This document shows positions 1 through 31,634 of a stretch of DNA of 35,015 bases, in pieces. The position numbers and the translations under genes are program-made. Below the pieces are notes generated by a model. The model was not told where the DNA came from and did no database searches. It saw nothing but the letters and a program-made list of their open reading frames with translations. This DNA is from Desulfobia sp. (lineage in GTDB: Bacteria > Desulfobacterota > Desulfobulbia > Desulfobulbales > SURF-16), in assembly GCA_041641775.1 (NCBI GenBank), contig JBEPXR010000005.1, positions 1-35,015 of the forward strand. The letters are read 5' to 3'. Each line of letters opens with the position of its first letter. Position 1 is the first letter of the stretch.

Positions 1-1
1 C

Positions 2-532
2 GATAATCGCCGGCCGGTGAATTACGAGTTGCGGCGCCTTCTGTTGACCGAGTTGCAGACCGGGTTTTCGTCCGGAGAGAGAAACAACCTGATCAGGGAC
101 ATGGTGGACAATATTGAGGACGGCAGAATTAAGCTTTATCTGACCTGGAGAGTCATTGATTTCAGAAGAAATCAACCTGAAATCTTCCAACAGGGCCGGT
201 ATCTGCCTCTTGAAGTAAATGGACCCCTTTCAGAGCATATCTGCGCCTTCGCCCGTTATTCGGAGGACGGCATGATTATAGCAGCCGTTCCTAGGCTGCT
301 GGGCACTCTTCTGGGCAGCAACCATCCGGCACCCCTCGGAGACGAAGTGTGGGGGGAGACAGGGATAAACCTGCCGGAGGAATTCAGTGGTACCGGTCTC
401 ACCTGTCTGATGACCGGGGACGAGAGGCCGGTTCGAGAGATGGACGGGGAAAAATGGCTGCTGGCTGCGGACATTTTTTCATCCTTTCCGGTTGCACTTC
501 TTTACAGGTTACCGTTGTCAGAAGAAGTTTGA
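2..532 (+). CDS. treY: malto-oligosyltrehalose synthase (TreY), C-terminal fragment; the 5' end lies outside the window
   Basis: The frame is open from the window edge. Codons 2-16 read DNRRP ahead of the GTG listed at 17, so the gene is truncated by the window. DNRRPVxY...RRLL and the following GRIKLYLTWRV...ICAFARY region match what I recognise as the conserved C-terminal part of GH13 TreY. treZ and treT lie in the same window. Confidence 0.8.
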   Translation, partial: DNRRPVNYELRRLLLTELQTGFSSGERNNLIRDMVDNIEDGRIKLYLTWRVIDFRRNQPEIFQQGRYLPLEVNGPLSEHICAFARYSEDGMIIAAVPRLLGTLLGSNHPAPLGDEVWGETGINLPEEFSGTGLTCLMTGDERPVREMDGEKWLLAADIFSSFPVALLYRLPLSEEV

Positions 533-604
533 ATCGAGAATGATCTTTTGTACACTTTTGGATACAGAGGGGCAAAATTCCAACCAGCAAAACGGGATGA
601 GATA

Positions 605-3600
605 ATGAAGAAAATCTTAATAAATAATCTCAAAGCCGTTATCCTTGATCTGGACGGCGTGATGACCGATACCGCCATGCTCCACGCCAGAGCCTGGAAA
701 GAGACCTTTGATGATTATCTCTCCGGGCGCTCCGGGGAATACTCCCCCTTTTCTCTGGAGCGGGATTATCCTGAGTACGTGGATGGTAAGTCCAGGCTGG
801 ATGGAGTGCGTGATTTTCTCTCCTCCCGGCAAATTGAACTCCCCGAGGGCGGTGAAGACGATGAGCCTGGAACGGAAACTGTTCAGGGACTGGCTGCCAG
901 CAAAAATGCCCTCTTTCTCGATCTCCTTAAAAAAGAGGGTATAAGCCCCTTCCCTGATGCAGTGGAGTTCATCCGGCGTCTGCGGGAGAGCGGACTGAAG
1001 GCAGGCCTGGTATCAGCAAGTCGCAATGCCGGCCGGGTTTTGGAAGCCGCCGGAATCAGTGATCTCTTTGATGTCCGGGTGGATGGCGAGGTTGCCCATA
1101 CCATGGGATTGGCAGGAAAGCCTGCCCCGGACATCTTTCTGGAAGCAGCCCGACAGCTTGGTGTGGAGCCCGAAGACAGCGCCCTTGTGGAGGATGCTGC
1201 GGCAGGAATCGAGGCTGCCCGGAGAGCCGGCTTTGCCAAGATTATCGGGATAGCCCGCCAAGGCAATGATTACCGGCTTGCCCAAAAAGGGGCGGAAATC
1301 ATTGTTGAGAATTTCGGTCAGCTCTGTTTTTTTTCCAGAGATATCCCGGCTGCTCAGGCAGCCAGGATACTTGGGGAGGCGGGGGACAGGGAACCTGTTC
1401 TTTTTCTGGATTATGACGGTACCCTTACTCCCATCGTCGAACGCCCCGATCAGGCCCGGCTTTCCACCAGGATGCGCTCCCTGCTCAAGCGTTTAAGCAG
1501 GGATATGACCGTTGCCATATTTTCCGGCCGGGATATGGATGATCTGAAGAAAAGAGTCAATGTTGATTCGGTCTATTACGCCGGAAGCCATGGCATGCGC
1601 ATACAGGGACCGGGTATCGAGGCCTGGGAGCATCCTGAGGCCCGGAATGCGAAGCCGGCCCTGAAAGAGGCGGCGCAGCAATTGAGAGAGGAACTCGGAG
1701 AGATTCGGGGAGTCGAGGTTGAGGAGAAATATTATTCCCTGGCCGTCCATTTCCGGAGAGTGGACTCGGACAGGAAACCTGATATCAAAGAAACCGCTGC
1801 CAGGATAGGCCGGGAGAAAGGGTTGCGGGAGACGGGTGGCAAAGAGATAGTGGAGCTGCGCCCTGACCTGGACTGGGACAAGGGAAAGGCGGTGGGCAAG
1901 TTGAGGTCCATACTGGGAATCGACTCTGAGGCGTATTTTTCTGTTTTCATTGGCGATGACCTCACCGATGAGGACGGATTTGACGCGGTCAGTGAAGAGG
2001 GTGCTGGTATACTTGTAGGCTGCCGGCGGGTCACCAATGCCCGCTACCGGTTGGAAAGTTATCGGGAAGTAGGGGTCTTTCTTGAACTTTTGACTCAATG
2101 GGATCCGATACATGATGAGTGGACCCTGGTCTACAATTCGTACAACCCCGAGGAGGAAAGTCTGCGTGAAGTTATCTGCGCTCTGGGAAACGGCTGTTTT
2201 GTTACCAGGGCCGCCGCTCCGGAAACCAGGGACGACGGCCTTCACTATCCAGGAACCTACCTGGCCGGGGGATACAATCGACTGACAACCGAGATCGAGG
2301 GACGTGAGGTCGAGAATGAAGATCTGGTGAATCAAGTCAACTGGCTGCCCCTGGCGGTCAGGGCAGAGGACGGAGAATGGCTCCATATTGACACGAGCAC
2401 GATACTCTCCTTCAGGCAGGAACTGGACTTGAAGGGCGGGGTGCTCAGGAGACATATTCGTTTCCAGGATCAGGCTGAGAGAATTTTCTCCTGGCATGAA
2501 CGGCGTCTGGTAAGCATGGATGCCCCCCATTACGCCGCCCTGGAAGTGGAGATTACCGCGGAGAACTGGGCCGGAAAGCTGGAAATCTGGTCGGCTCTTG
2601 ACGGTGATCTGGTCAATAACGGAGTAAGCCGCTATCAGGATTTGAACAGCCAGCACCTTGAGGTTGTTATGGCGGAGGAACGGTCTCAGGATTTGAGCCT
2701 GGTCCATACCAGGACCAACCAGTCCAGTCTGGAAGTGGCGGTCTGCAGCCGTACCCGATTCTATGACGGGAAGAAAACATTGACCCCCGAAAGCCGGAAG
2801 GAGGGGAGTGGCGCTTCCACCTCCAGAATTTGCGTGCTTTCAATAGAGCAGGGTAGCAGGATAACGGTCGAAAAAATAGCAGCCCTTTACAGTTCCAGAG
2901 ACCGGGCCATAACGGAGCCGGTAGCCGAAGCCTATGGGGCGGCAAAACGTGCCCCCCGTTTTCAGGCCCTTCTCGAAGATCACTGTCGGGCCTGGAGGCA
3001 CCTTTGGGAGGAATGTGATCTCAGGATTTCCTGCCAGGATGGCAGCGAAGAGACCCTCGTCAAGATGAGGTTCAACATCTTTCACCTCATCCAGACCAGC
3101 TCGCCTCATATCATCGATCTCGACGTGGGAGTTCCGGCTCGGGGCTGGCATGGTGAAGCCTACCGTGGTCATATTTTCTGGGATGAACTCTTTATTTTTC
3201 CCTTCCTCAATTTCCGTCTGCCCATTCTGACCCGTTCACTCCTGCTTTACCGTTTCAGGAGACTGCCTGCCGCCCGCAGAGCTGCGGCAGCCACCGGAGC
3301 CAAGGGCGCCATGTATCCCTGGCAGAGCGGTAGTGACGGAAGAGAAGAAACCCAGACCCTGCATCTCAATCCCCAGTCAAATCGGTGGATTCCGGATAAT
3401 TCCCATCGGCAGCGCCATATTAACAGTGCCATTGCCTATAATATCTGGCGCTACTATGAGGCAACCGAGGACAATGAGTTTCTCTATTACTACGGAGCGG
3501 AGATTTTGCTGGAAATCGCCCGTTTCTGGGCAAGCATAGTTAGCTATAACGAGTCGCTGGACCGCTATGAAATCAAAGGGGTTATGGGACCGGACGAATT

Positions 3601-4546
3601 CCACACGGCCTACCCTGACCATGACCCGGAGCAGGAGGGAGGAATCGATAACAACAGTTATACCAATCTTATGACCTGCTGGGTCCTGCACAAAGCCTGC
3701 CGGGTCACTGAACTGCTGCCCAATGAGCGCCGAAGCCGGATTTTTGAAGATATAGGCCTCAAGGAAGAAGAGATTAAAAAGTGGGACGAGATCAGTCGTA
3801 AGCTTAGAATCGTTTTTCAGAAGGGAGGGATAATAAGTCAGTTTGAGGGGTATGAAAAACTCGAAGAACTGGATTGGGATCACTACCGGGAGAAGTATGG
3901 AGATATCCAGCGGCTGGACCGGATTCTGGAAGCAGAAGGGGATACGCCCAACCGCTATAAGGTGGCAAAACAGGCTGATGTTCTGATGCTCTTTTATCTT
4001 TTCACGGCTGATGAATTGAGCTTTCTCTTTGAATACCTGGGATATTCGTTTGATTCCCAGTCCATACCAGAAAACATCAACTACTACCTGCAGCGAACCT
4101 CCCACGGCTCCACCTTGAGCAGAGTCGTTCACAGCTGGCTTCTGGCCCGTACAGATCGGCAGGGATCCTGGCAGTTATTCCGCGAGGCCTTGAACAGCGA
4201 TATTCATGACATCCAGGACGGTTCCACTGCAGAGGGCATCCACACCGGTGCAATGTCCGGCACGGTCGATATAATGAATCGCTGCTATACGGGTCTGGAA
4301 ACCAGTCTGTCTACGCTGCATTTTAATCCTCAGCTTCCTGCGGATGTAAAATGTCTTAATATGAATCTCCGTTACCGTGAAAATAAACTGGCGGTGGAAA
4401 TCAACAGGCACTGGCTGCAGGTGGAGAGTTCCTCCAGTCTGAACCGTCCGGTGGGAATTTCCTACCGGGGAGATGCCCGGAAGCTTGCCCCCGGGGAACG
4501 GATTTATTTTCGGCTGGTCGGTGACAGTCAGAACGGAGAAGGATAG
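605..4546 (+). CDS. three-domain fusion: beta-phosphoglucomutase-like HAD + trehalose-6-phosphate phosphatase (OtsB-like HAD) + GH65 disaccharide phosphorylase
   Basis: The listed ORF begins at TTG 548. I prefer ATG 605 (MKKILINNLKAVILDLDGVMTDT). The beta-PGM motifs present are DLDGVMTDT, LVSASRN, AGKPAPDIF and EDAAAGIEAA. The OtsB motifs are LFLDYDGTLTPI, AIFSGR, DKGKAV and GDDLTDEDGF. The GH65 region includes WHGEAYRGHIFWDELFIFPF and a long alpha/alpha-toroid-like C-terminal part. It is one uninterrupted frame. Confidence 0.85.
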   Translation: MKKILINNLKAVILDLDGVMTDTAMLHARAWKETFDDYLSGRSGEYSPFSLERDYPEYVDGKSRLDGVRDFLSSRQIELPEGGEDDEPGTETVQGLAASKNALFLDLLKKEGISPFPDAVEFIRRLRESGLKAGLVSASRNAGRVLEAAGISDLFDVRVDGEVAHTMGLAGKPAPDIFLEAARQLGVEPEDSALVEDAAAGIEAARRAGFAKIIGIARQGNDYRLAQKGAEIIVENFGQLCFFSRDIPAAQAARILGEAGDREPVLFLDYDGTLTPIVERPDQARLSTRMRSLLKRLSRDMTVAIFSGRDMDDLKKRVNVDSVYYAGSHGMRIQGPGIEAWEHPEARNAKPALKEAAQQLREELGEIRGVEVEEKYYSLAVHFRRVDSDRKPDIKETAARIGREKGLRETGGKEIVELRPDLDWDKGKAVGKLRSILGIDSEAYFSVFIGDDLTDEDGFDAVSEEGAGILVGCRRVTNARYRLESYREVGVFLELLTQWDPIHDEWTLVYNSYNPEEESLREVICALGNGCFVTRAAAPETRDDGLHYPGTYLAGGYNRLTTEIEGREVENEDLVNQVNWLPLAVRAEDGEWLHIDTSTILSFRQELDLKGGVLRRHIRFQDQAERIFSWHERRLVSMDAPHYAALEVEITAENWAGKLEIWSALDGDLVNNGVSRYQDLNSQHLEVVMAEERSQDLSLVHTRTNQSSLEVAVCSRTRFYDGKKTLTPESRKEGSGASTSRICVLSIEQGSRITVEKIAALYSSRDRAITEPVAEAYGAAKRAPRFQALLEDHCRAWRHLWEECDLRISCQDGSEETLVKMRFNIFHLIQTSSPHIIDLDVGVPARGWHGEAYRGHIFWDELFIFPFLNFRLPILTRSLLLYRFRRLPAARRAAAATGAKGAMYPWQSGSDGREETQTLHLNPQSNRWIPDNSHRQRHINSAIAYNIWRYYEATEDNEFLYYYGAEILLEIARFWASIVSYNESLDRYEIKGVMGPDEFHTAYPDHDPEQEGGIDNNSYTNLMTCWVLHKACRVTELLPNERRSRIFEDIGLKEEEIKKWDEISRKLRIVFQKGGIISQFEGYEKLEELDWDHYREKYGDIQRLDRILEAEGDTPNRYKVAKQADVLMLFYLFTADELSFLFEYLGYSFDSQSIPENINYYLQRTSHGSTLSRVVHSWLLARTDRQGSWQLFREALNSDIHDIQDGSTAEGIHTGAMSGTVDIMNRCYTGLETSLSTLHFNPQLPADVKCLNMNLRYRENKLAVEINRHWLQVESSSSLNRPVGISYRGDARKLAPGERIYFRLVGDSQNGEG

Positions 4547-4675
4547 ATGGCGTTGTGATCGCTTCTTCCGGATTTTTTCGGCAGAGGGCGTGTTCCCGCC
4601 TGAATGCAGGTCGAAGAAACTTTATACACCGCTTAATGCGGAAGTGGTAGGAGTTATTTAGCCAAGGAGAAGATC

Positions 4676-5362
4676 ATGAATCCGGAAAGACATGAAGGAA
4701 CACAGGCTGTTGATGAGAGTGTTTTTGAAATTAAGGATTGTGCGCTGATAGCCATAGCCACGGGAGAAAGTGCTGCCACCTTGAAAGAGCTTCTCAATGT
4801 GATCAGCCATATAACGTCTGCCAGCATTTACCACCATTTCTGGGGAGGACTGCTTCTGCCCCGCTTTGAAGAACGGGAATTCAACAATGATTTTGCTTCC
4901 TGGGCCAAGCGGAAGCTGGATGACGATAAACTTGCCGAACAGCTCGCCCTGATCTCGCCCACTGATTATCCCGATCTGGACGCACTGCGCCAGGCACTTA
5001 TAGATGTCATCATGGAAAGAATGAATGAGTACGACTGCCTGCCCTGGCTCCCTGCCTCGACTGAACTGGAGTTTCTCCGTTCTCAGATTGTGGTCTTTGA
5101 TACCCATGTACGGGTGACCAGACCGCGGGAGCTGGCCGATGTCATTCCTGATCTGTCGCCCAGTACGATCTTTTATCATTTTATCGACTCCCGCAGGAGG
5201 ACGGCCGATGGAATCGATGATTTCCGGGCCTGGCTTGCCAACTGGGAGGAGTGCAGCGGCCTCTGCAACAAGTTGGCCGATATAGATCCCTATTTCGATA
5301 CCTTAAACAAACTGAGAAGCCAGATTACTGCAGTTTTTACTGATTTTTTCAAGGGGGGATGA
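4676..5362 (+). CDS. conserved hypothetical protein, DUF5752-like, apparently partnered with TreT
   Basis: ATG 4676 follows AAGGAGAAG. The stop lies 6 nt before the treT start. No catalytic motif is recognisable. The DUF5752 assignment is from memory of similar TreT-adjacent proteins, not from a search. Confidence 0.55.
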   Translation: MNPERHEGTQAVDESVFEIKDCALIAIATGESAATLKELLNVISHITSASIYHHFWGGLLLPRFEEREFNNDFASWAKRKLDDDKLAEQLALISPTDYPDLDALRQALIDVIMERMNEYDCLPWLPASTELEFLRSQIVVFDTHVRVTRPRELADVIPDLSPSTIFYHFIDSRRRTADGIDDFRAWLANWEECSGLCNKLADIDPYFDTLNKLRSQITAVFTDFFKGG

Positions 5363-5368
5363 AAAGAT

Positions 5369-6610
5369 ATGACCAGTCTTCTTGATGCGTATGCCCAGGT
5401 TGCCGGGGGTGATTCCATAAGGCACCTGCAGCAGCTTTCCGAGCCGTTGCAGGGAATGAAGGTCGTTCACGTTAATTCCACCAGACTGGGGGGAGGAGTG
5501 GCCGAGATTCTCACCAAGCTTGTTCCTTTGACCAGGGAATTGGGGATTGATGCCCATTGGGAGGTGATTACCGGTGACGAGGATTTTTTTCACTGCACCA
5601 AGTCCATGCATAATGCTTTACAGGGAATGGCCGCCGATATTCCAGCCAGGCTCCTGGATAAATACGTTGAAATCAATGCCCGGAATGCCGAGGAGCTCAG
5701 GTCCACCCTGGAGGAGGCGGATTTTGTCTTCATCCATGATCCCCAGCCGGCCGCTCTGCTGCACTTCTGCCCCGATCGCAAGGGCACCTGGGTCTGGCGC
5801 TGCCATATAGACGCCAGCCGTCCCTACCTGCCGGTCTGGAAGTTTCTGAGACAGTATATAAGACATTACGACGCCAGCATCTTCTCCCTGGCTAAATTTT
5901 CCCAGTCCCTGCCGCATGCCCAATACATTATTCCGCCAAGTATAGATCCCTTAAGCGATAAGAATATCGATCTAAGCAGGGAGGAACTCCAGAAGATAAG
6001 CAAGAACTACCAGCTTGAGGAGAAGCACCCGCTGCTCGTCCAAGTCTCCCGATTCGACCGCTTCAAGGACCCAATCGGGGTCATCAGGGCCTACCAGATG
6101 GCCAAACGCTTCATGCCCTCCCTTTACTTGATACTGGCCGGTGGGGAGGCGACCGATGACCCGGAGGGCGCTGAAGTGCTGGGCGAGGTGAGGGAAGCGG
6201 CGGCTGGCGATGACTCCATCCAGATCCTGCTCCTCCCTCCGGATGCTCACCGCATCGTCAACGGACTGCAGCGGATGGCCGACATCGTCATCCAGAAATC
6301 AACCAGGGAAGGCTTCGGCCTCACCGTTACCGAGGGAATGTGGAAAGGAAAGCCGGTAATCGGAGGAAATGCCGGCGGGATAGCCCAGCAGGTCATCGAT
6401 CACCAGACCGGCTACCTGGTTAATTCCCCGGAAGGAGCAGCTTTGCGGATCCGTTATCTTCTCCACAATCCCGGTAAGCTGGAGGAGATCAGTATCAAGG
6501 CCAAGGATTTCGTCCGGGAAAATTTCCTGCTCACCCGGCAGTTGCGTGAGCATTTGACTCTGATCGTGGGCATGCTTCACGGAGCAAGGGATCGTATCGT
6601 TTTGGGCTGA
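5369..6610 (+). CDS. treT: trehalose glycosyltransferring synthase TreT (GT4 family)
   Basis: Blocks match archaeal and bacterial TreT as I recall it from Thermococcus litoralis: HVNSTRLGGGVAEIL, FHNALQG-like MHNALQG, HDPQPAAL, WRCHID, PPSIDPLS, QVSRFD and REGFGLTVTEGMWKGKPVIG. Confidence 0.9.
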   Translation: MTSLLDAYAQVAGGDSIRHLQQLSEPLQGMKVVHVNSTRLGGGVAEILTKLVPLTRELGIDAHWEVITGDEDFFHCTKSMHNALQGMAADIPARLLDKYVEINARNAEELRSTLEEADFVFIHDPQPAALLHFCPDRKGTWVWRCHIDASRPYLPVWKFLRQYIRHYDASIFSLAKFSQSLPHAQYIIPPSIDPLSDKNIDLSREELQKISKNYQLEEKHPLLVQVSRFDRFKDPIGVIRAYQMAKRFMPSLYLILAGGEATDDPEGAEVLGEVREAAAGDDSIQILLLPPDAHRIVNGLQRMADIVIQKSTREGFGLTVTEGMWKGKPVIGGNAGGIAQQVIDHQTGYLVNSPEGAALRIRYLLHNPGKLEEISIKAKDFVRENFLLTRQLREHLTLIVGMLHGARDRIVLG

Positions 6611-6617
6611 TGGTATC

Positions 6618-7508
6618 TCAGCTGTGGCTTTTTCCCGCAGCACTCTTAAAACCGGCCACCAGATCGAGAAGTTCGCTGGTAATCACTGACTGGCGCAACT
6701 GCCGGTAGTCGCCCCGCAATTCTTCGAGATGTTCTTTTATGTTTTTCTCCGCCTGCTGCAGGGACTGCAGACGGCTGGCCTGTTCACTGGCCAGCGACTG
6801 GGCCTGGGCCCTGAAAATGGCGACAAACAGAAACTGCCGGATGAGATTGCTGACCATCCTGTCGGCGTCTTCGGCAAAATATGGTAAACAGCGGCTGGGC
6901 CAGGGACGTTCGGTCAACTCCTGCAATTTCCGGTGGCCGAGGGGGAAGAGGGGAAGATGCCGGGGTTGGGCCGTGCTGCCGGTCTGTTCATGGTAGTTGA
7001 AGAGCAGGTCGATTTTATCCCTTCCCCCACTTTCGCGCCAGGAGGAGATCTCCAGGACTATTTCCATGATGTGGCGGTTTATTCCTTCGATGGAGCCGGG
7101 GGACCAGAAGCTTTTTATGATGTTATAGCCTTCGCTTTGCAGACGGTTTCGGATTCTGGCCCCGGTAACCAGCAGGGAAACCCCCTTCTCAGGGAGGGTT
7201 TCCCCTTTTATCTTCTGGAGAAATTCCACCAGTTTTTCATTGAAACGACCGCAGAGGCCCTGGTCGGAGCCGAAAACAACCAGCAGGTGTCCTCCCTCCT
7301 GTTTTCTCACCTGCTTTCTGGTAGACTCGGCTTCATTGATTACAGCGGAAAGACCTTTCTCAATCGTTTCCAGATAGGTATCCAATGAGCCGGCCGCCTC
7401 TTCATACTGATGGATATTGACCGCAGCCATAGTTTTCATGGTCTTGACAATGGACTGGAGTCCGGTTGCGGTACTGATTTTTTTTTCCAGTTGATGTAAG
7501 TTGGCCAT
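6618..7508 (-). CDS. atpG: N-type F-ATPase gamma subunit
   Basis: The N-terminus is MANLHQLEKKISTATGLQSIVKTMKTMAAV and the C-terminal coiled helix is ITSELLDLVAG. It is the last gene of the atpDCQRBEFAG-ordered operon. Confidence 0.9.
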   Translation of the reverse strand: MANLHQLEKKISTATGLQSIVKTMKTMAAVNIHQYEEAAGSLDTYLETIEKGLSAVINEAESTRKQVRKQEGGHLLVVFGSDQGLCGRFNEKLVEFLQKIKGETLPEKGVSLLVTGARIRNRLQSEGYNIIKSFWSPGSIEGINRHIMEIVLEISSWRESGGRDKIDLLFNYHEQTGSTAQPRHLPLFPLGHRKLQELTERPWPSRCLPYFAEDADRMVSNLIRQFLFVAIFRAQAQSLASEQASRLQSLQQAEKNIKEHLEELRGDYRQLRQSVITSELLDLVAGFKSAAGKSHS

Positions 7509-7521
7509 TTTTGTTGCCGGG

Positions 7522-9060
7522 CTAGTTGTCCTCTTTATTTTCCGTTTCCAGCAGGCCTGCTTCTTCTAAAGCATTGCGGCTGATGTTAATCAGCCTGTCC
7601 TGCCGATCCTCACTCAGTTCCTCGTCACCGGAGATGGATGATCTGATTTCCTCTGCCTGGCTTTCCAGAGCCTTGCGGATTTCGTTCTCGGCCTTGGCCA
7701 TATCATCAAGGTCTATCTCATCAAAAAGACCTCTGTTCAGAATCAGCATGGTAACCACCTGCTCGTAATCTTTTCTGGGATTGTAGCGATGCTGGCGCAG
7801 CAGCTCCCGGAGGCGTTTTCCCCTTTCCAGAGCCTGTCTGGTTTTTTCGTCGAGTCGGGTGGCAAACCGTGAGAAACTTTCCAGTTCCTCGAATTGGGAG
7901 TAGGACAGCTTAAGCTCGCCCACCAGGCCTTTAAACGCGGGCCTCTGCGCCTTGCCGCCCACCCGTGATACCGATCTGCCCACATCTACCGCCGGCAGCA
8001 TGCCTTTGGAAAACAGCTCGGGAGAAAGATAGATCTGGCCATCGGTTATGGAAATGAGGTTCGTGGGTATGTAGGCGGAAAGATTCTGCTCTTCTGTTTC
8101 AATGATCGGCAGGGCGGTGAGAGAGCCGCCGCCCTTGTCATTACGCAGGTGGGTGGAGCGTTCCAGAAGCCGGGAGTGGATATAGAAGATATCACCGGGG
8201 TAAGCTTCTCTGCCCGGAGGATGCTCGAGGAGCAGGGAGAGCTCCCGGTAGGCCCTGGCGTGTCTGGTCAAATCATCATAGACGATCAGAATATCCTTGC
8301 CCTCTTTCATGAAATGTTCCGCGATGGAAGTGGCGGCATAGGGCGTAATAAACTGCAGACCGGGACCTTTTTCACCTCCAGCCACCATAACGATTGTGTA
8401 TTCCATGGCGCCATTTTTCTCAAGCTCATGGATGACTCTGGCCATGGCCGATTCTCTCTGTCCTATGGCGACATAAATGCAGATGACGTCCTTGCCCTTC
8501 TGGTTGGCTATGGTGTCAAGGCCGATTGCGGTTTTGCCGGTCTGGCGGTCTCCCAGGATGAGTTCCCTCTGGCCTTTTCCCACCGGAATAAGGGTGTCAA
8601 TAACCTTGATTCCTGTTTCCAGAGGCGAGGAGACCGGAGCCCGATCCATAATGGCAGGGGCAGTTCTTTCAACTGGCAGGCGTTCGTCGGTATCCAGCGG
8701 CCCCCTGTTATCCAGTATCTCTTCGGTTGCGGTAAAGACTCGTCCAAGTAAACCCGAACCTACGCCTATATCAACGACCCTCCGCAATCTTTTTACTTCC
8801 ATGCCCGCCCGTATGCTGGTGGAATGACCGAGCAGAATCAGTCCGACACTGTCTGCTTTCAACGTCGCCACCATGGCCCGTGTGCCGTCTTCGCACTCCA
8901 CCAGTTCCTCAAAACCTATTGACCCGAGTCCGGCAGCCCAGACAATGGGGCCGGTTACGGAAGTTATATGACCGGTATCCTCCTGTTTTATTCCTGTCTG
9001 GTGCGAAGATATGGCTTTATTGAAAGCCCTTTCCTGATTTTCCCTGGTTTTTTCGAGCAT
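7522..9060 (-). CDS. atpA: N-type F-ATPase alpha subunit
   Basis: Carries Walker A GDRQTGKTAIGLDTI, plus ILIVYDDLTRHARAYRELSLLL and PGREAYPGDIFYIHSRLLER. Confidence 0.95.
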   Translation of the reverse strand: MLEKTRENQERAFNKAISSHQTGIKQEDTGHITSVTGPIVWAAGLGSIGFEELVECEDGTRAMVATLKADSVGLILLGHSTSIRAGMEVKRLRRVVDIGVGSGLLGRVFTATEEILDNRGPLDTDERLPVERTAPAIMDRAPVSSPLETGIKVIDTLIPVGKGQRELILGDRQTGKTAIGLDTIANQKGKDVICIYVAIGQRESAMARVIHELEKNGAMEYTIVMVAGGEKGPGLQFITPYAATSIAEHFMKEGKDILIVYDDLTRHARAYRELSLLLEHPPGREAYPGDIFYIHSRLLERSTHLRNDKGGGSLTALPIIETEEQNLSAYIPTNLISITDGQIYLSPELFSKGMLPAVDVGRSVSRVGGKAQRPAFKGLVGELKLSYSQFEELESFSRFATRLDEKTRQALERGKRLRELLRQHRYNPRKDYEQVVTMLILNRGLFDEIDLDDMAKAENEIRKALESQAEEIRSSISGDEELSEDRQDRLINISRNALEEAGLLETENKEDN

Positions 9061-9135
9061 AGTAGTATGAGTTTGGATTTTCCGAATGCGCTGACGGCCG
9101 CACCTGCAGGAGCTCAGGCCGAGGGTATATGTTTT

Positions 9136-9894
9136 TTACCGGACAGTCTTCTCCAGCTCCTTTTCGAGACGTTCCTGGAAATCGTCCAGGTAGCGCCTCA
9201 GATGCCAGCCCACTTTTCTCCCCTCAACTGTCACGGTGATTCCGGCCAGGAGGTCGGGATTGGTCTCGAAATGCACTTCCACCCCTCTGCCGCACAATTT
9301 TTCGAGATGTTCGCTTACCTGCTCCTGCAGGGCAGGGGATAAATCCCTGCTGCTGTCAACCTGGAGATCATCGAGTTCTTTCTCCTTTAATGAACTGAGA
9401 ACCTTCTTGTCCGGATCGGTGCTGGTCTTCTCCAGGAACAGCCTGACCATCTTCTCTTCAAAATCATGATCCGCAAGTTCCCGGAAGGCATTCCGGCTGA
9501 GTCTCCCGAATTCTTCGGCAATAGTCCGGCTGGTGTGCACGAGAAACTGTTCCTTTTCTTTCTCGAGTTCCCGCTGCCACTTGTGACGGGCCTGTTCTTC
9601 TTCGCTTCGGACTTCTGCGGTCAGACGCTGCCGCAGTTCTTCAGCTTCCCTGCTGGCCTCCTCCAGCTTTTGGCGGGCTTCCTGGTCCGCCTTCTTCTGA
9701 AGAGACTGATAGCGTTTTTTTTCTTCTTCAGCCGCTTCTCTCTCTTTTCCGGCCTCCTCAAGCCTTTCGTTTACCTTCTCCTGTCTTTTGTGCATTGCCC
9801 TTAATACCGGGGCATAGAGAAATTTTTTCAGGAGCCAGATCAGTATGAAGAGATTAAGGATCTGGACGGCTGCGGTAAACAGGTCGACACTCAT
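9136..9894 (-). CDS. atpF: N-type F-ATPase b subunit (long form)
   Basis: It has a single N-terminal TM helix (LFTAAVQILNLFILIWLL) followed by a long, highly charged coiled coil. It shares an ATGA overlap with atpE. At 252 aa it is longer than a classical b subunit, and no delta gene is present. Confidence 0.8.
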   Translation of the reverse strand: MSVDLFTAAVQILNLFILIWLLKKFLYAPVLRAMHKRQEKVNERLEEAGKEREAAEEEKKRYQSLQKKADQEARQKLEEASREAEELRQRLTAEVRSEEEQARHKWQRELEKEKEQFLVHTSRTIAEEFGRLSRNAFRELADHDFEEKMVRLFLEKTSTDPDKKVLSSLKEKELDDLQVDSSRDLSPALQEQVSEHLEKLCGRGVEVHFETNPDLLAGITVTVEGRKVGWHLRRYLDDFQERLEKELEKTVR

Positions 9895-10169
9895 CCGCCG
9901 CTTGCCTTTACCGCGTGATTCCAGATGGGATTGGCAAAGATCAGGATCATGGCGATGACAAAAGCGTATATGGAGGTCGATTCGATCATGGCCATGGAGA
10001 CAAACATTGTTCTGGTAAAGGTGCTGGTCTGATCCGGCTGTTGGGCCATGGAGCGCAGGGCAGCGGCAGCGGCCATTCCCTCCCCGATTGCGGCGCCGAT
10101 GGCGCCGAAGCCGATGGCCAGGCCGGCCCCGAGGACTGAGCCGAAGCCGATAATATCAAGAGACGTCAT
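9891..10169 (-). CDS. atpE: N-type F-ATPase c subunit (rotor ring proteolipid)
   Basis: Two-helix hairpin with the loop RSMAQQPD. Helix 2 carries IESTSIY and helix 1 carries IGEG. Confidence 0.9.
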   Translation of the reverse strand: MTSLDIIGFGSVLGAGLAIGFGAIGAAIGEGMAAAAALRSMAQQPDQTSTFTRTMFVSMAMIESTSIYAFVIAMILIFANPIWNHAVKASGG

Positions 10170-10870
10170 GATGATCCTCCTTGAATAGAGTTATTGGTTT
10201 CATCTTCCGTTTTTTTCATGGCTGTAGCAATATAAACTGCTGCCAGCAGGGCAAAGATGTAAGCCTGTATTACTCCGGTGAGGAGTCCCAGGAGCTGCAT
10301 GATCACAGGGATGACCAGAGGGACGATAACCATGAGGACAAGTATGATCACCGTTGAACTCATGACGTTGCCATAAAGCCGCACGGCGAGCGCGAAGGTC
10401 CTGGTGACATCACCGAGAATATTAAAAGGCAGCATAAACGGAGTGGGCCGTATGTACTGTTTGAGATAACTGGCCAGAGACTGGCTTCGGAGACCGTAAA
10501 CCGGAACGGCCACGAAGACGACGAGCGCATAGGCAGCCGTCGTTGAAAGCGAACCGGTTGGCGGCTGAAAGAAGGGAAGGATGCTCAAGATGTTGGAGAC
10601 GAGGATAAAAAGAAAAAAAGTGCCGATAAGAGGAAGGAAAGGCCGCGGATCTCGATGGGTTACCTCTTCGATATGGTCGTTTATACCCTTGACGATCACT
10701 TCCAGGAAATTCTGCCAGCTGGAAATATCCGTTGTACTGCTTAATCGCCGGCTGATAAGCCAGGACCCTCCCACCAGCAGGGCCATGATCAACCAGGTGA
10801 AAATCAGAGTGGCATTTATTTCTCCCCAACCCCACTCCAGGTAGACGTATTGATCGGGAGAATACTTCAT
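10166..10870 (-). CDS. atpB: N-type F-ATPase a subunit
   Basis: Polytopic membrane protein with the conserved stator arginine in LAVRLYGNVMS. ATGA overlaps occur at both ends. Confidence 0.9.
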   Translation of the reverse strand: MKYSPDQYVYLEWGWGEINATLIFTWLIMALLVGGSWLISRRLSSTTDISSWQNFLEVIVKGINDHIEEVTHRDPRPFLPLIGTFFLFILVSNILSILPFFQPPTGSLSTTAAYALVVFVAVPVYGLRSQSLASYLKQYIRPTPFMLPFNILGDVTRTFALAVRLYGNVMSSTVIILVLMVIVPLVIPVIMQLLGLLTGVIQAYIFALLAAVYIATAMKKTEDETNNSIQGGSS

Positions 10871-11139
10871 GGCTTGATCTCCTTTTTCATTTTTCGCAGC
10901 CAGAAAAAGCGGCTCACCGTAAAACCTGCAGCCAGCAGAAGAAGGCGCTGCCAGTCATGGTCGGCCAGAAGATAAAGAGCTGCGATCAGGATTGAGACCC
11001 GGAACAGAAAGCTTGAGATCAGCCACCCCATTCTGTTATCTTTAGTGCTAACCCTCCAGAGAGTGAGATAAAGTCCGCTGAAGTAGAAAAAACCCAGGGT
11101 GGCCCCACTAAACAGCATCAGCGGTGCAGTGATAATCAT
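10867..11139 (-). CDS. atpR: N-ATPase accessory membrane protein AtpR
   Basis: The listed ORF (to 11304) is trimmed to ATG 11139, which overlaps the atpQ stop (ATGA). The 90 aa product has about 3 TM helices (MIITAPLMLFSGATLGFFYF...). Position and size match AtpR of N-ATPase operons. Confidence 0.75.
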   Translation of the reverse strand: MIITAPLMLFSGATLGFFYFSGLYLTLWRVSTKDNRMGWLISSFLFRVSILIAALYLLADHDWQRLLLLAAGFTVSRFFWLRKMKKEIKP

Positions 11140-11432
11140 GACTCTTCCCTCCCATGTTTGGTTATCCAGTGCCAGGCCACCAGGCAGCCTATCGCCAGAC
11201 CCACGATGAGACCGGTTATGGTCCAGGATGTCTCGCTTCTGTGCAGGGTGTCGAGCCACCTTCCCAGCAGAGTGCCCAGAACCGTGGGGATGGCCACGCT
11301 CCATCCCACCGTACCGAAAAGGCCCAGACCGAAAAAAAACGATTCCTGCTTGTGCTCTTCAGCTTCAAGCCTCTTTCTGCATTTTTCCTCGATAATTTCA
11401 GGCAGTTTTTCCTTTTTTTTCGGATCAGGCAT
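11136..11432 (-). CDS. atpQ: N-ATPase accessory membrane protein AtpQ (AtpZ/AtpI-like)
   Basis: 98 aa, with a Lys-rich N-terminus and then two TM helices (FFFGLGLFGTVGWSVAIPTVLGTLLGRWLD). It occupies the atpQ position between atpC and atpR. Confidence 0.75.
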   Translation of the reverse strand: MPDPKKKEKLPEIIEEKCRKRLEAEEHKQESFFFGLGLFGTVGWSVAIPTVLGTLLGRWLDTLHRSETSWTITGLIVGLAIGCLVAWHWITKHGREES

Positions 11433-11482
11433 AGGAAAGTGACCTCGCCGATAAAGTTGAATTTTGTCGTTGTGTCTGGTTT

Positions 11483-13725
<2,243 letters not shown>

Positions 13726-13729
<4 letters not shown>

Positions 13730-14937
13730 TTTTTGATCTCACCTGCCCGGGTTAAGGCGAATTTTGCCCCCAGTGGACCGATAAATTCGAAGATAATGGA
13801 ACTTGCTGAAATAATGGTCAGGACCTGGCTGCCGATCAGTTCGGTCCCTCCCGTAAGCTCGGCCAGCTCCTGTTTTGCCAGGAGGGCGAGACCTATAGCG
13901 ACCCCGGCCTGGGAGAGGATACCGAAGCCGAGATATTTGTTTATCTTTTCATCCATGCCTCCGAGTGTTCCGCCAAGCAAGGCTCCCCCTGTGAGGCCTC
14001 CGGTTCGGCTTACGACATAGATGATTCCCACCATTCCTATGGCCGGCAGGGTGGCAACATCCAGATGGAGTCCGGCCAGTCCGAAAAAAAGGATGAAAAT
14101 GAGCTCCATGATATTCTGGAGCGGCTTGCGAACTTCTTTGACCAGATAGTCTTTATTGGTGTTGACCAGAATAAATCCTGTCATCATGCAGGTGAGAATA
14201 AGGGAAAGATGCCAGCGTTCGGCAAGACCCGTCCCCAGGAAAACGGCCATGAAGATGGCGATAATTATGTCTTGATCACGGTCCAGCCAGTGGATCAGCA
14301 GCGTAAAAAAAGCACCGATGACTCCCCCTAACAGGAGACTGGAAAGTACTTCCTTGAAAGGGTGCCAGAGTGCGCTGATCTGGAAAGCGGGACCGGCTGC
14401 TTCGCCCGGGGTAAGCAGTATCTTGACACTGAAAAGGGTCAAACTGAAGATAATCACCGCTAGCCCGTCATCAAAACCCACCACTGCATAAAGGGTTTTG
14501 GTGAGTTTGCCTTTGGCCCGGTATTCCTGAATGACGGCCACGGTGCCAGCCGGGGCGCTGGCTGGCGCCAGACCGCCGAGGAGAAGGGCGAGAGCCAGAT
14601 TATGACTAACCAGATATACCGCGGCTGCCACGAGGAGAAATGTCATCAGGCATTCAGTTATTATCAGAAATACGATCCCTGAACCAAGCCTTCCCAGGGA
14701 AGAAAGTTTCAGCTCTGAACCAATAATAAAGGCTATAAATCCCAGAGAGAGCGTGGTCACGAAGGAGAGATTGTCTGTCAGCTCTCCTGGAAATAGATCG
14801 AGAAAGCTGGGACCTAGCAGGACACCTGCCGTCAGGTAGCCGATAAGGGCAGGCAGGTTCAGGAGTCGGGCCAGCCTGCCGCAGAAATAGCCGGTAGTAA
14901 TGAGGAGGGCGACAGCGGTTATTGCGGAAAAATTCAT
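13726..14937 (-). CDS. CPA2-family monovalent cation:proton antiporter (Kef/NapA-like membrane domain, no KTN domain)
   Basis: The N-terminus is typical of the Na_H exchanger family: GRLARLLNLPALIGYLTAGVLLGPSFLDL. About 12 TM segments. I prefer ATG 14937 (MNFSAITAV...). The listed ORF extends to 14994 and the start is uncertain. Confidence 0.8.
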
Positions 14938-15075
14938 ATAGCCCGTTACTTGTTTGCTGTTGGTGGTCCATGGCTGCGTCAGCCGCCAGACCATAACAAA
15001 TACATTGGAATCTCAACTTCCATCTTATAAAATGTGATAAATGCAGTATAGAGGAAATTTAAAGGATGTGGCGAT

Positions 15076-16917
15076 ATGGCTCTTCACTTTCACCATGAAA
15101 TGAATTTTGGTCCCCATCTCCTTCCGGAGGGTGGAGTCTGCTTCCGGCTTTGGGCTCCCAGCGCGGAAAAGGTGGATATCGGTCTCCAGCTGAACGGTCG
15201 GGACCAATGGCAGACTCTTACCATGGAAAAGGGAGAGTCCGGCTGGTTCCGGCTGACCATCGGGGAAGCCGGACCTGGTGATCTGTATTGTTTCCGGATT
15301 GATAACGGACTCTGGGTTCCGGACCCGGCCTCGCGTTTTCAGCCGGAAGATGTTCATGGTCCAAGTGAGGTTATTTCTCCCGGGTTTTTTACCTGGAATG
15401 ATCTGTCCTGGAAGGGGAGACCCTGGAGTGAAACGGTATTGTACGAACTCCACGTTGGCTCTTTCACTCCGGAGGGAACTTTCCAGGGTGTGGAGTCACG
15501 CCTCGATTACCTGGCGGAAATCGGAGTGACCGCGGTGGAACTCATGCCGGTGTCAGCCTTTCCCGGCAGCCGCAACTGGGGGTATGACGGGGTTCTTCCC
15601 TTTGCTCCTGAAAGCAATTATGGCCGGCCGGAGGATATGAAAAATCTCGTCCAGGAGGCTCACAGACGGAAGCTGATGGTCTTTCTCGATGTCGTGTACA
15701 ATCACTTCGGCCCCGAGGGTAATTATCTGCATGCCTATGCCAAGCCCTTTTTCAGCAGCCGCCATGAAACGCCCTGGGGTGATGCTATCAATTATGACGG
15801 CTCCGACAGCGAAACAGTCCGGGATTTCTTTATCCAGAATGCCCTGTACTGGCTGGAAGAGTTTCACCTTGACGGCCTGAGATTTGACGCAATCCACAGC
15901 ATTTACGATGATTCAGAGCCGCATATTCTTAAGGAAATTGCCGAGGCGGTTGACCTGGGGCCGGGAAGAGAGAGAGAGATTCACCTGGTTCTGGAAAATG
16001 ATAACAATGAAGCCCGGTACCTGGAACGTGATGCAAAGGGGCGTCCTTGCTGGTATAAGGCACAGTGGAACGACGATGCCCATCACTGTTTTCACTGTCT
16101 TCTGACAGATGAAGGAGACGGATATTATCAGGACTACCATGGAAACGCCCTTGATTATCTGGGTCGATGTCTGACCGAGGGATTTGCCTACCAGGGCGAG
16201 CCTTCACCTTTCCGTGGAGGAAAAATAAGGGGGGAAAGCAGTACGCATCTCCCTCCCACCGCTTTTGTCAATTTCCTCCAGAATCACGATCAGGTGGGAA
16301 ACAGAGCTTTTGGAGAAAGGTTGATTCGTTTAACCTCCAGGAAGCCTCTGCGGGCGGGGATCGCCCTTCTGCTGCTGGCTCCTTCCATCCCCCTGCTCTT
16401 CATGGGCGAAGAGGCGGGAGTGACCAATCCTTTCCCGTTCTTCTGTGATTTCGGGGCTGATCTCGCTCCTCTGGTCACCGAAGGACGCCGTCGTGAATTT
16501 GCCGAGTTCGAAGCCTTCAAAGACCCTGAGGTCCGCAAAACCATTCCCGATCCTGCTGACCCAGCAACCTTTCGGGATGCGGTGCTGGATTTAGGCAGTC
16601 CTGACCAGGACAGCCGGGAGTGGCTGGATTACTACCGCTATCTCCTCGATCTCAGGCACCGCCTGCTGGTTCCTAGGCTCGGGCAGATTGTGCCGGGCAA
16701 GGGGGAATACCAGGTAGTGGATTCCAAAGTCCTTCTGGCATCCTGGCCCTTTCAGGATGGAGTGGTCTGGAGACTCTATGCCAATCTCGGTTCCGAGAAT
16801 TATGGGAAGATCGAGATGCCTGCTGCAAAGCTGATTTTCAGTACAGCCGGAGAAGAAACCTCAGGAGACGGGGTGCTACCGGCCTGGACGGTTTCCTGGT
16901 TTCTGGATAAGGAATGA
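15076..16917 (+). CDS. treZ: malto-oligosyltrehalose trehalohydrolase (GH13)
   Basis: GH13 regions are present: DVVYNH, GLRFDAIH, HLVLEND and FLQNHDQ. The N-terminal domain GGVCFRLWAPSAEKV is typical of TreZ. An alternative start is ATG 15100. Confidence 0.9.
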   Translation: MALHFHHEMNFGPHLLPEGGVCFRLWAPSAEKVDIGLQLNGRDQWQTLTMEKGESGWFRLTIGEAGPGDLYCFRIDNGLWVPDPASRFQPEDVHGPSEVISPGFFTWNDLSWKGRPWSETVLYELHVGSFTPEGTFQGVESRLDYLAEIGVTAVELMPVSAFPGSRNWGYDGVLPFAPESNYGRPEDMKNLVQEAHRRKLMVFLDVVYNHFGPEGNYLHAYAKPFFSSRHETPWGDAINYDGSDSETVRDFFIQNALYWLEEFHLDGLRFDAIHSIYDDSEPHILKEIAEAVDLGPGREREIHLVLENDNNEARYLERDAKGRPCWYKAQWNDDAHHCFHCLLTDEGDGYYQDYHGNALDYLGRCLTEGFAYQGEPSPFRGGKIRGESSTHLPPTAFVNFLQNHDQVGNRAFGERLIRLTSRKPLRAGIALLLLAPSIPLLFMGEEAGVTNPFPFFCDFGADLAPLVTEGRRREFAEFEAFKDPEVRKTIPDPADPATFRDAVLDLGSPDQDSREWLDYYRYLLDLRHRLLVPRLGQIVPGKGEYQVVDSKVLLASWPFQDGVVWRLYANLGSENYGKIEMPAAKLIFSTAGEETSGDGVLPAWTVSWFLDKE

Positions 16918-31151: not shown

Positions 31152-31634
31152 TAATAGTTCCTCCTTTTAAGGCTGATCTTTTACTCTGCCCCCTTTCCAC
31201 CGGCGGACCAATCCCTTATCATTTCGAGCGAAGGGAGGATTCTATTCTTGGGGCGGTCAGCCCCCTTCAGCTTCCTCGCTTCGACCTAAATGACAGTTTT
31301 TGACGGATTTCCCTGAAACGGGCGAAATGCTAAGCGCACCGATTGCCGAAAATTGCGGCATTGGAAAGCCGGGGCTGGAAAAGGTGAGTGCAGAGTCCGG
31401 TTAATAATGAGAATTTCCCACTTGCTTTACCCCGTTGAAATAAACTACTAAGACATAATGCGACCTGCTATTAATTTCAAGGGGAAATAAAAAAAACTTG
31501 TCCAGTTGCATAGAGTGGTGAGGAAGTAATCCGGGGAATAAAAAGAATAAGCAGTGATTAGCGGATTACCGGGCCGGGTTGCAACCGGAAATTCTCCTGC
31601 GGATTTATATCCAGAGCATGAATACGAGGTGCCT

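Follow-up and report, generated by a model that had tools for sequence, protein, structure and literature searches.

What could a bacterium gain from carrying a beta-phosphoglucomutase (beta-PGM), a trehalose-6-phosphate (T6P) phosphatase (T6PP) and a GH65 phosphorylase on a single polypeptide? This question is raised by a gene of Desulfobia sp. (605..4546, + strand) in a stretch of 35,015 nucleotides (contig JBEPXR010000005.1 of GenBank assembly GCA_041641775.1, positions 1 to 35,015), hereafter called the window. The first-pass annotation of this DNA proposed that the fusion makes trehalose without any nucleotide sugar. Such a route, leading from two molecules of glucose-6-phosphate (G6P) to trehalose and two phosphates (Pi), appears to be the best-supported reading of the gene, with about an even chance of being correct. 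The types of the domains and their intact catalytic residues, the T6P-type motif of the GH65 domain, the conserved association of these activities and the surroundings of the gene support it; the direction of the flux is what we infer from them.

The gene is a single intact frame encoding 1313 aa from an ATG at 605, without internal stops; the listed open reading frame (ORF) spans 548..4546 (+) with a TTG start, and the homologues align from about residue 8. As the first-pass annotation had seen, one chain carries the three activities, and five Pfam domains succeed one another along it: a HAD hydrolase (residues 10-211, E 1e-28), Trehalose_PPase (267-484, E 4e-54), and the GH65 N-terminal (PF03636, 510-765, E 7e-62), catalytic (PF03632, 822-1221, E 3e-131) and C-terminal (PF03633, 1236-1289, E 4e-7) domains, the first two of the GH65 matches lying above their cut-offs and the third reaching 30 bits for a cut-off of 22. 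These matches and the motifs described below exclude chance by a wide margin. On the basis of the ORF, of the Pfam and NCBIfam domains and of more than 100 full-length three-domain homologues found by protein search (about 50% identity), the gene is annotated as an OtsB1-like fusion of a beta-PGM, a T6PP and a GH65 T6P phosphorylase (TrePP).

Domain 1 (632..1327, residues ~10-241) is a HAD protein of the beta-PGM family. It reaches 169 bits with TIGR02009, the model of the beta-PGM/YqaB subfamily (cut-off 153), and among solved structures it is by far closest to PDB entry 8h5s, a 260-aa 'beta-phosphoglucomutase' (E 4e-55). The latter is probably Rv3400 of Mycobacterium tuberculosis, as the D27/D29 numbering fits. 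Rv3400 was reported to be a beta-PGM in vitro, and its deletion or a D29A substitution raises cellular beta-glucose-1-phosphate (beta-G1P) 30-fold. The motifs quoted in the first-pass annotation are all found (DLDGV at 15, SASRN at 137, GKPAPD at 171 and EDAAAG at 196) and include or accompany the nucleophile D15, the acid/base D17, H27, R64, S137, S139, R140, N141, K172, E196 and D197. Residues H20, R49, S114, S116, N118, K145, E169 and D170 of the Lactococcus lactis beta-PGM and its DxD pair are all matched.

Domain 2 (1388..2098, residues ~262-498) is a T6PP of the HAD-IIB type. It scores 170 bits with TIGR00685, the T6PP equivalog model (cut-off 68), and its best solved match is the catalytic domain of OtsB2, the functional T6PP of M. 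tuberculosis (PDB entry 5gvx, E 8e-48). The four HAD-IIB motifs are all present, namely DYDGT (269-273), SGR (307-309), K426 and GDDxTDED (450-457), and so are the strings noted at first reading (DYDGTL at 269, (F)SGR at 306, (DW)DKG at 423 and GDDLTDED at 450), which provide residues D269, D271, T273, S307, R309, K426, D451, D452 and D455. According to the alignments and to this check of the motifs, both HAD domains keep their catalytic residues.

The remainder of the chain is a complete GH65 enzyme composed of an N-terminal beta-sandwich that holds D573 (2111..2899, residues ~503-765; PF03636 and alignment to PDB entry 3wiq), an (alpha/alpha)6 catalytic domain (3068..4267, residues ~822-1221; PF03632) and a C-terminal domain (4310..4471, residues ~1236-1289; PF03633). 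Its residues were mapped by HMMER alignment to CsKP (3wiq), their roles and the CsKP numbering being taken from a 2024 review of GH65 (PMC11442529) and the specificity motif from PMC8537180. The GHIFWDE block that the first-pass annotation had taken as a catalytic signature is indeed present at 855, but it belongs to the -1 subsite (CsKP F342/W343/D344) and does not contain the catalytic residue; the true catalytic acid is E998 (CsKP E483), within GPDEFH. The whole -1 subsite is retained (F858, W859, D860, K1122 and Q1123 for CsKP F342/W343/D344/K596/Q597), as is the phosphate site (R846, Y853, S1169, T1170 and H1213 for CsKP K/R330, Y337, S631, S632 and H675), in which the Ser-to-Thr swap at T1170 is shared with PDB entry 9lb6. 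Because of E998, the intact phosphate site and the residues of the -1 subsite, domain 3 is predicted to be a phosphorylase and not a hydrolase.

The substrate can be read from six specificity positions (CsKP 64/392/394/402/416/585), which spell DQGQDE in T6P phosphorylases; a Caldithrix enzyme predicted by this motif was then shown to make T6P from beta-G1P and G6P (De Beul et al. 2021, PMC8537180). In domain 3, D573, Q907, G909, Q917, D931 and E1111 form exactly DQGQDE. H920, N922, R937 and H938, invariant in the homologues compared and different in CsKP, are candidate ligands of the 6-phosphate. The ranking of solved structures goes the same way, with 434 bits for 9lb6/9lb7, 311 for a kojibiose phosphorylase, 204 for a glucosylglycerol phosphorylase and 172 for a maltose phosphorylase. 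The deposit of 9lb6 is entitled 'trehalose-6-phosphate hydrolase', yet its sequence has the phosphate site of a phosphorylase; it probably corresponds to the enzyme studied by Feng et al. Judged by this motif and this ranking, the GH65 domain belongs to the T6P-phosphorylase type and not to the maltose, nigerose or kojibiose types, when set against the characterized phosphorylases as the first-pass annotation had proposed. The nearest characterized relative of every domain thus has the activity that the synthetic route requires (Rv3400, OtsB2 and the T6P-acting 9lb6), and each computational test proposed at first reading that could have spoken against this route, where run, favoured it.

The route can be pictured as follows. 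The fusion would be a cytoplasmic, self-contained trehalose-forming enzyme that requires no nucleotide sugar. Its beta-PGM domain would turn a small share of G6P into beta-G1P, the TrePP domain working in the synthetic direction would join this beta-G1P to a second G6P, giving T6P and Pi, and the T6PP domain would hydrolyse T6P to trehalose and Pi. The first two steps would be reversible and roughly balanced overall, and the third, irreversible, would pull both of them, so that the net reaction would be 2 G6P + H2O -> trehalose + 2 Pi. Hydrolysis yields about -13.8 kJ/mol for each G6P and about -12 kJ/mol for trehalose, which leaves about -16 kJ/mol for the net route; relative to OtsA/OtsB, one ATP equivalent is saved per trehalose. 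G6P would be the only substrate, and the benefit of the fusion may be a channelling in which the scarce beta-G1P and T6P, harmful or best not released, are kept close to the next active site. In the host, the enzyme would probably be one of several co-encoded routes for the synthesis of trehalose as a compatible solute. The chemistry has precedents in vitro, where TrePP and beta-PGM used as separate enzymes give T6P in good yield; in the words of one paper, the TrePP step is 'nearly irreversible' in the direction of T6P.

How the three activities are associated elsewhere is the second line of evidence. Named hosts of the homologues found by protein search include Desulfobulbaceae, Chloroflexota, Nitrosococcus halophilus and Thioalkalivibrio, among others, the nearest named relative being a partial protein of Desulfobia sp. 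(78% identity). A scan of one genome per species revealed at least 590 relatives, among whose hosts are Actinomycetota (many of them Mycobacterium), Bacteroidota, Planctomycetes, Nitrospirota, Gemmatimonadota, Chlamydiales and archaea (Ca. Argoarchaeum, Ca. Ethanoperedens and a metagenome-assembled genome (MAG) of Methanomassiliicoccus). Arrangements were counted in 80 fetched loci, numbered L001 onwards, and the window. All three domains form one gene in 16 loci, window included; a beta-PGM-T6PP gene precedes a GH65 gene in 23; a T6PP-GH65 fusion occurs in nine; three separate genes are found in four; and a T6PP gene accompanies a GH65 gene in three. The T6PP is missing from seven further loci, five with separate beta-PGM and GH65 genes and two with a fusion of both. 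The order beta-PGM, T6PP, GH65 is nearly constant whatever the arrangement.

Such repeated and independent fusion and fission speak for the three activities working in one pathway. As they are found fused or adjacent again and again across phyla, it is likely that they act together and unlikely that their role is purely catabolic, in keeping with the argument of the first-pass annotation that an added T6PP makes little sense for catabolism. Indeed, a T6PP has no place in a pathway leading from a phosphotransferase system (PTS) to T6P, TrePP and beta-PGM, because the phosphatase would undo the uptake. The 34 catalytic and specificity positions checked are invariant in twelve sequences taken from across the family, and 119 of 120 diverse homologues either retain the residues or show conservative variation there. 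DQGQDE is kept in most homologues, the position of CsKP residue 64 varying between D, S, C and T. The idea that the stop between the beta-PGM-T6PP and GH65 genes could be an in-frame read-through signal was abandoned, as about one third of the split loci share the frame, which is the chance expectation.

The hosts provide a third line of evidence. They include obligate chemolithoautotrophs (N. halophilus and Thioalkalivibrio), sulfate reducers and many MAGs named CSSed, a prefix that we take to stand for Cock Soda Lake sediments. In N. halophilus and T. nitratireducens, whose genomes are complete, the gene is found by itself, as one would expect if it encoded a self-sufficient pathway. Full three-domain fusions, 48% identical to the window protein, are carried by the ethane-oxidising archaea Ca. 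Argoarchaeum ethanivorans (L002) and Ca. Ethanoperedens thermophilum (L004). In cultures of ethane-oxidising archaea, trehalose accounts for up to 75% of the extracted metabolites, and added trehalose is not consumed. These hosts, which do not live on sugars, fit the synthetic reading.

The architecture itself, presented at first reading as one without known characterization, is not new: it is that of the catalogued OtsB1/Rv2006 proteins, which bear the annotation 'trehalose-phosphatase' and number in the hundreds of genomes. To this functionally unexplained family the window protein adds a new member with all three domains intact. OtsB1 of M. tuberculosis (Rv2006 / MT2062, 1327 aa, DosR regulon) has the same length class and the same order of HAD, T6PP and GH65 domains. 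According to a 2024 review, only OtsB2 of the two M. tuberculosis proteins OtsB1 and OtsB2 has T6PP activity, and the function of OtsB1 is called unknown; a 2024 preprint states that OtsB1 was never biochemically characterized and that the claim of its inactivity was published without data. The link with OtsB1 was drawn from mycobacterial homologues, from the size given in the review and from the UniProt description of Rv2006. These homologues, one of which is named after MT2062, align to query residues 11-1302 with 44-45% identity, and their loci also carry genes encoding USP, nitroreductase and DosT-like kinase proteins.

Mycobacterial copies differ from the window protein, which is intact in all three domains. 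Nearly all of them have SQGPDE at the GH65 specificity positions instead of DQGQDE, and many, among L018, L020, L021, L024, L034 and the proteins P0121-P0240, are only ~1210-1245 aa long: ~100 residues are missing from their N terminus, as are the catalytic residues of beta-PGM. In the M. gastri group, an Asn replaces the nucleophile Asp of the T6PP. The decayed copies all keep the GH65 catalytic and phosphate-site residues. This pattern points to domain decay or to a change of function within Mycobacterium. A broader claim would make the whole family, mycobacterial OtsB1 included, a naturally occurring trehalose synthase on one polypeptide, which acts on two G6P and needs neither a nucleotide sugar nor any ATP other than that spent on hexose phosphorylation; in our opinion it has slightly less than an even chance.

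Several points weigh against the synthetic route. The flux direction is deduced from sequence. Domain 1 fails TIGR01990, the equivalog model of beta-PGM (120.6 bits for a cut-off of 189.4); this shortfall goes with a cap insertion of ~20 residues relative to the L. lactis beta-PGM, the same insertion being present in 8h5s. R140 occupies the place of L. lactis K117, the sole change among the aligned catalytic and phosphate-binding residues. The level of beta-G1P in equilibrium with G6P is low, so that the rate could be poor. In 7 of the 80 loci the module has an OtsA-type gene (GT20-T6PP) as its immediate neighbour; a second source of T6P would be redundant there, which fits a turnover role. 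This organism already encodes TreY/TreZ and TreT. Likeness to the full-length query was the criterion for selecting the 80 loci, which biases the linkage frequencies upward. Lastly, a 2024 review records neither T6PP activity for M. tuberculosis OtsB1 nor an obvious phenotype for its mutant, and an otsB1 mutant formed persister-like bacilli normally. The SQGPDE motif and the often decayed beta-PGM of mycobacterial copies, and the publication of the inactivity claim without data, weaken these negatives, which need not apply to intact versions such as the window protein.

The alternative that survives best, although it is unlikely, is a branch-point or turnover enzyme working beside a separate T6P synthase, OtsA. 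The T6PP would then finish trehalose synthesis, and any surplus of T6P would be converted back to G6P by TrePP and beta-PGM, either as a safety valve that prevents T6P from accumulating or for shutting synthesis down after an osmotic downshift. The GT20-T6PP genes mentioned above are what suggests it: they lie at most 70 bp from the module and on the same strand in five loci (L009, L010, L059, L068 and L077) and in its vicinity in two (L019 and L071). TrePP and beta-PGM are, moreover, an established catabolic pair in Lactococcus, and the arrangements that lack the T6PP would suit such a role. Against it, a phosphatase and a phosphorylase acting on the same substrate on one unregulated chain would be futile, the equilibrium of TrePP favours T6P formation, OtsA is not found nearby in 73 of the 80 loci nor anywhere in the window, and the gene is alone in N. 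halophilus and T. nitratireducens.

A second alternative, rather improbable, keeps the synthetic direction and is compatible with the route from two G6P. In this scheme a separate GH65 phosphorylase, with maltose, kojibiose or sugars derived from glycogen as its substrate, would supply beta-G1P, the beta-PGM would form the G6P acceptor from this beta-G1P, and the protein would convert alpha-glucan breakdown products to trehalose. Cascades of maltose phosphorylase, TrePP and beta-PGM do the same in vitro, a second GH65 gene is found near the module in L043 and L053, and the window gene lies between the glycogen-to-trehalose genes treY and treZ. However, a second GH65 gene is absent from the window and from most loci, and the gene is alone in autotroph genomes; as the beta-PGM equilibrium favours G6P, either source is chemically possible.

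It is highly improbable that the protein is a classical catabolic TrePP/beta-PGM whose T6PP-like domain is non-catalytic, either regulatory or decayed, as was assumed for M. tuberculosis OtsB1. The reported inactivity of the latter, the loss of HAD catalytic residues in some mycobacterial copies, whose beta-PGM is often decayed, and the Asn of the M. gastri group speak for it. On the other side, the window protein and 119 of the 120 diverse homologues retain all catalytic residues of the T6PP, domain 2 passes TIGR00685, no route from trehalose to T6P by a PTS is found in the window or in the loci, and the hosts are largely non-saccharolytic.

Barely credible is a GH65 domain acting on unphosphorylated sugars, as the trehalose or kojibiose phosphorylase that the first-pass annotation had kept as an alternative, as a maltose or nigerose phosphorylase or as a hydrolase: a 2026 survey labels the GH65 genes of ethane-oxidising archaea and their sulfate-reducer homologues 'TreP/MalP' from the Pfam match alone, and a kojibiose hydrolase model matches partially (175 bits, far under its cut-off of 800), but the motif is DQGQDE and not that of trehalose (TRIGPP), kojibiose (EEAPxx) or maltose (KV[MF]NES) phosphorylases, the best structure match acts on T6P, and the phosphate site is intact, with Ser/Thr in the stretch where hydrolases carry their catalytic base.

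The synthetic route from two G6P shares parts with three known systems. In L. lactis, a PTS, a TrePP (GH65, EC 2.4.1.216) and PgmB catabolize T6P with two of the same activities, the same GH65 signature and phosphate site and a beta-PGM whose residues align; in the window, by contrast, the enzymes are fused, a T6PP is added, no PTS or sugar importer is nearby, the hosts of the family are largely non-saccharolytic and the proposed direction is the opposite. Of the features of the Lactococcus-type pathway, a trehalose PTS or other sugar uptake system was found neither in the window nor among the recurrent neighbours of the 80 loci, and the lack of a T6PP does not apply to the window gene, which encodes one. 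OtsA/OtsB (TPS/TPP) and the fused TPSP enzymes share T6P as an intermediate and a homologous last step, catalysed by a T6PP such as OtsB2 (E 8e-48). Fusing a T6P-forming to a T6P-hydrolysing enzyme is familiar in these systems, and GT20-T6PP fusions are found among the loci. The difference lies in the origin of T6P, which would come from a GH65 phosphorylase and beta-G1P instead of GT20 and UDP- or ADP-glucose. Finally, the in vitro T6P cascades, which combine maltose phosphorylase and TrePP, with or without beta-PGM, also use TrePP synthetically and interconvert hexose phosphates by beta-PGM, with overall yields of 55-93% (55-80% for those with TrePP and beta-PGM); they are artificial mixes of separate enzymes that start from maltose and stop at T6P, and were called 'new-to-nature' in 2026. 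A literature search found no paper giving the three-enzyme route, or TrePP, T6PP and beta-PGM together, as a natural pathway, and a 2025 review of T6P metabolism lists TrePP as degradative only.

If the synthetic route is correct, nature already uses the coenzyme-free path to T6P and trehalose that biotechnologists called 'new-to-nature' in 2026, and a further pathway of trehalose biosynthesis, a new variant of the T6P synthase/phosphatase theme built from known enzymes, would exist in at least 590 bacterial and archaeal species. Its saving of one ATP equivalent over OtsA/OtsB would matter for osmolyte-filled cells with little energy to spare. Autotrophs and anaerobes that are short of energy in saline or soda habitats may favour the pathway, which could add to the large trehalose pools of alkane-oxidising consortia. 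M. tuberculosis OtsB1, a protein of the dormancy regulon without known role, would receive a function that can be tested; the labels 'trehalase', 'TreP/MalP' and 'trehalose-phosphatase' on hundreds of genes would be corrected; and trehalose production could be engineered with a compact part consisting of one gene. If it is wrong, a phosphatase and a phosphorylase for one substrate, kept together across phyla, still need explaining.

The surroundings of the gene in the window are those of trehalose synthesis and ion homeostasis, not of sugar catabolism. Upstream lies the 3' end of treY, encoding malto-oligosyltrehalose synthase (2..532, +; open to the window edge and matching TreY models over their last 160 residues, E 4e-40). 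Downstream are a DUF5752 gene (4676..5362, +; PF19027, E 2e-76), homologous to OrfY of Thermoproteus tenax (PDB 4cso, 'ORFY protein, transcription factor', E 2e-16), and a gene for a GT4 trehalose glycosyltransferring synthase of the TreT type (5369..6610, +; PF21269 TreT_GT1, E 2e-56; PDB 6zj4, E 8e-120, and 2x6q, E 2e-102), whose product reaches 379 bits with NF041139 (TreT), under the cut-off of 775. The four + strand genes are separated by 73 bp (treY to fusion), 130 bp (fusion to orfY homologue) and 7 bp (orfY homologue to treT). A complete operon for an alternate (N-type) F1Fo ATPase (6618..14994, -; beta, epsilon, small ORFs, a, (c), b/delta, alpha and gamma, identified by the Pfam ATP-synt families) converges on this cluster. 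Its epsilon subunit passes TIGR03166, 'alternate F1F0 ATPase epsilon' (114 bits, cut-off 100), and genes for a CBS-pair protein and a CPA2 cation:proton antiporter (Pfam CBS and Na_H_Exchanger) stand upstream on the same strand. Beyond it lies treZ, encoding malto-oligosyltrehalose trehalohydrolase (15076..16917, +; TIGR02402, 684 bits, cut-off 539). The position of the ATPase operon directly between trehalose genes suggests a salt-stress island.

The search of the 35-kb window found no PTS or sugar importer, ABC-type importers included, and no otsA, and no PTS or sugar ABC importer was found among the recurrent neighbours of the 80 loci. With treY, orfY-treT and treZ present and no sugar-uptake gene in the window, the local context is consistent with the synthetic reading given at first. 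A scan of 1..7000 for promoters and terminators gave counts equal to or under the shuffle expectation. Neither orfY-treT nor treY and treZ can be regarded as obligatory partners of the fusion: the orfY-treT pair recurs only in L051 and treZ-like genes occur in five of the 80 loci, with more than 40% identity in L009 and L047 only. The association of the fusion with orfY-treT and treZ is local to this genome.

The orfY-treT pair deserves mention for itself: an archaeal gene pair, it is conserved in bacteria, namely in the Desulfobulbaceae-like organism of the window and in a MAG of Syntrophaceae (L051, 249..2141). A literature search for DUF5752/PF19027 found no paper. In T. tenax, orfY-treT is reportedly the gene pair of the 'unidirectional TreT' operon for trehalose synthesis, which Kouril et al. 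are said to have described in 2008.

Among the recurrent neighbours of the 80 loci are, besides GT20-T6PP (7 loci), genes for phosphoenolpyruvate (PEP) synthase-like proteins (10 loci) and PfkB kinases (7 loci). A PEP synthase or pyruvate phosphate dikinase-like gene (~800 aa) adjoins the module in L001, L016, L020, L021 and L042, which belong to unrelated lineages; this hints at a link with the gluconeogenic supply of hexose phosphate.

Two observations concern other subjects. On the contig of the closest full-length relative, an encapsulin shell gene (Linocin_M18) and a gene for an EncFtn-like cargo (L081, 19376..20569) lie a few kb from the fusion, to which they are probably unrelated. In the window, a 512-aa ORF (31554..33092, +) joins an HhH-GPD base-excision glycosylase to an Exo_endo_phos domain (ExoIII-type AP endonuclease) and thus carries two consecutive steps of base-excision repair on one chain.

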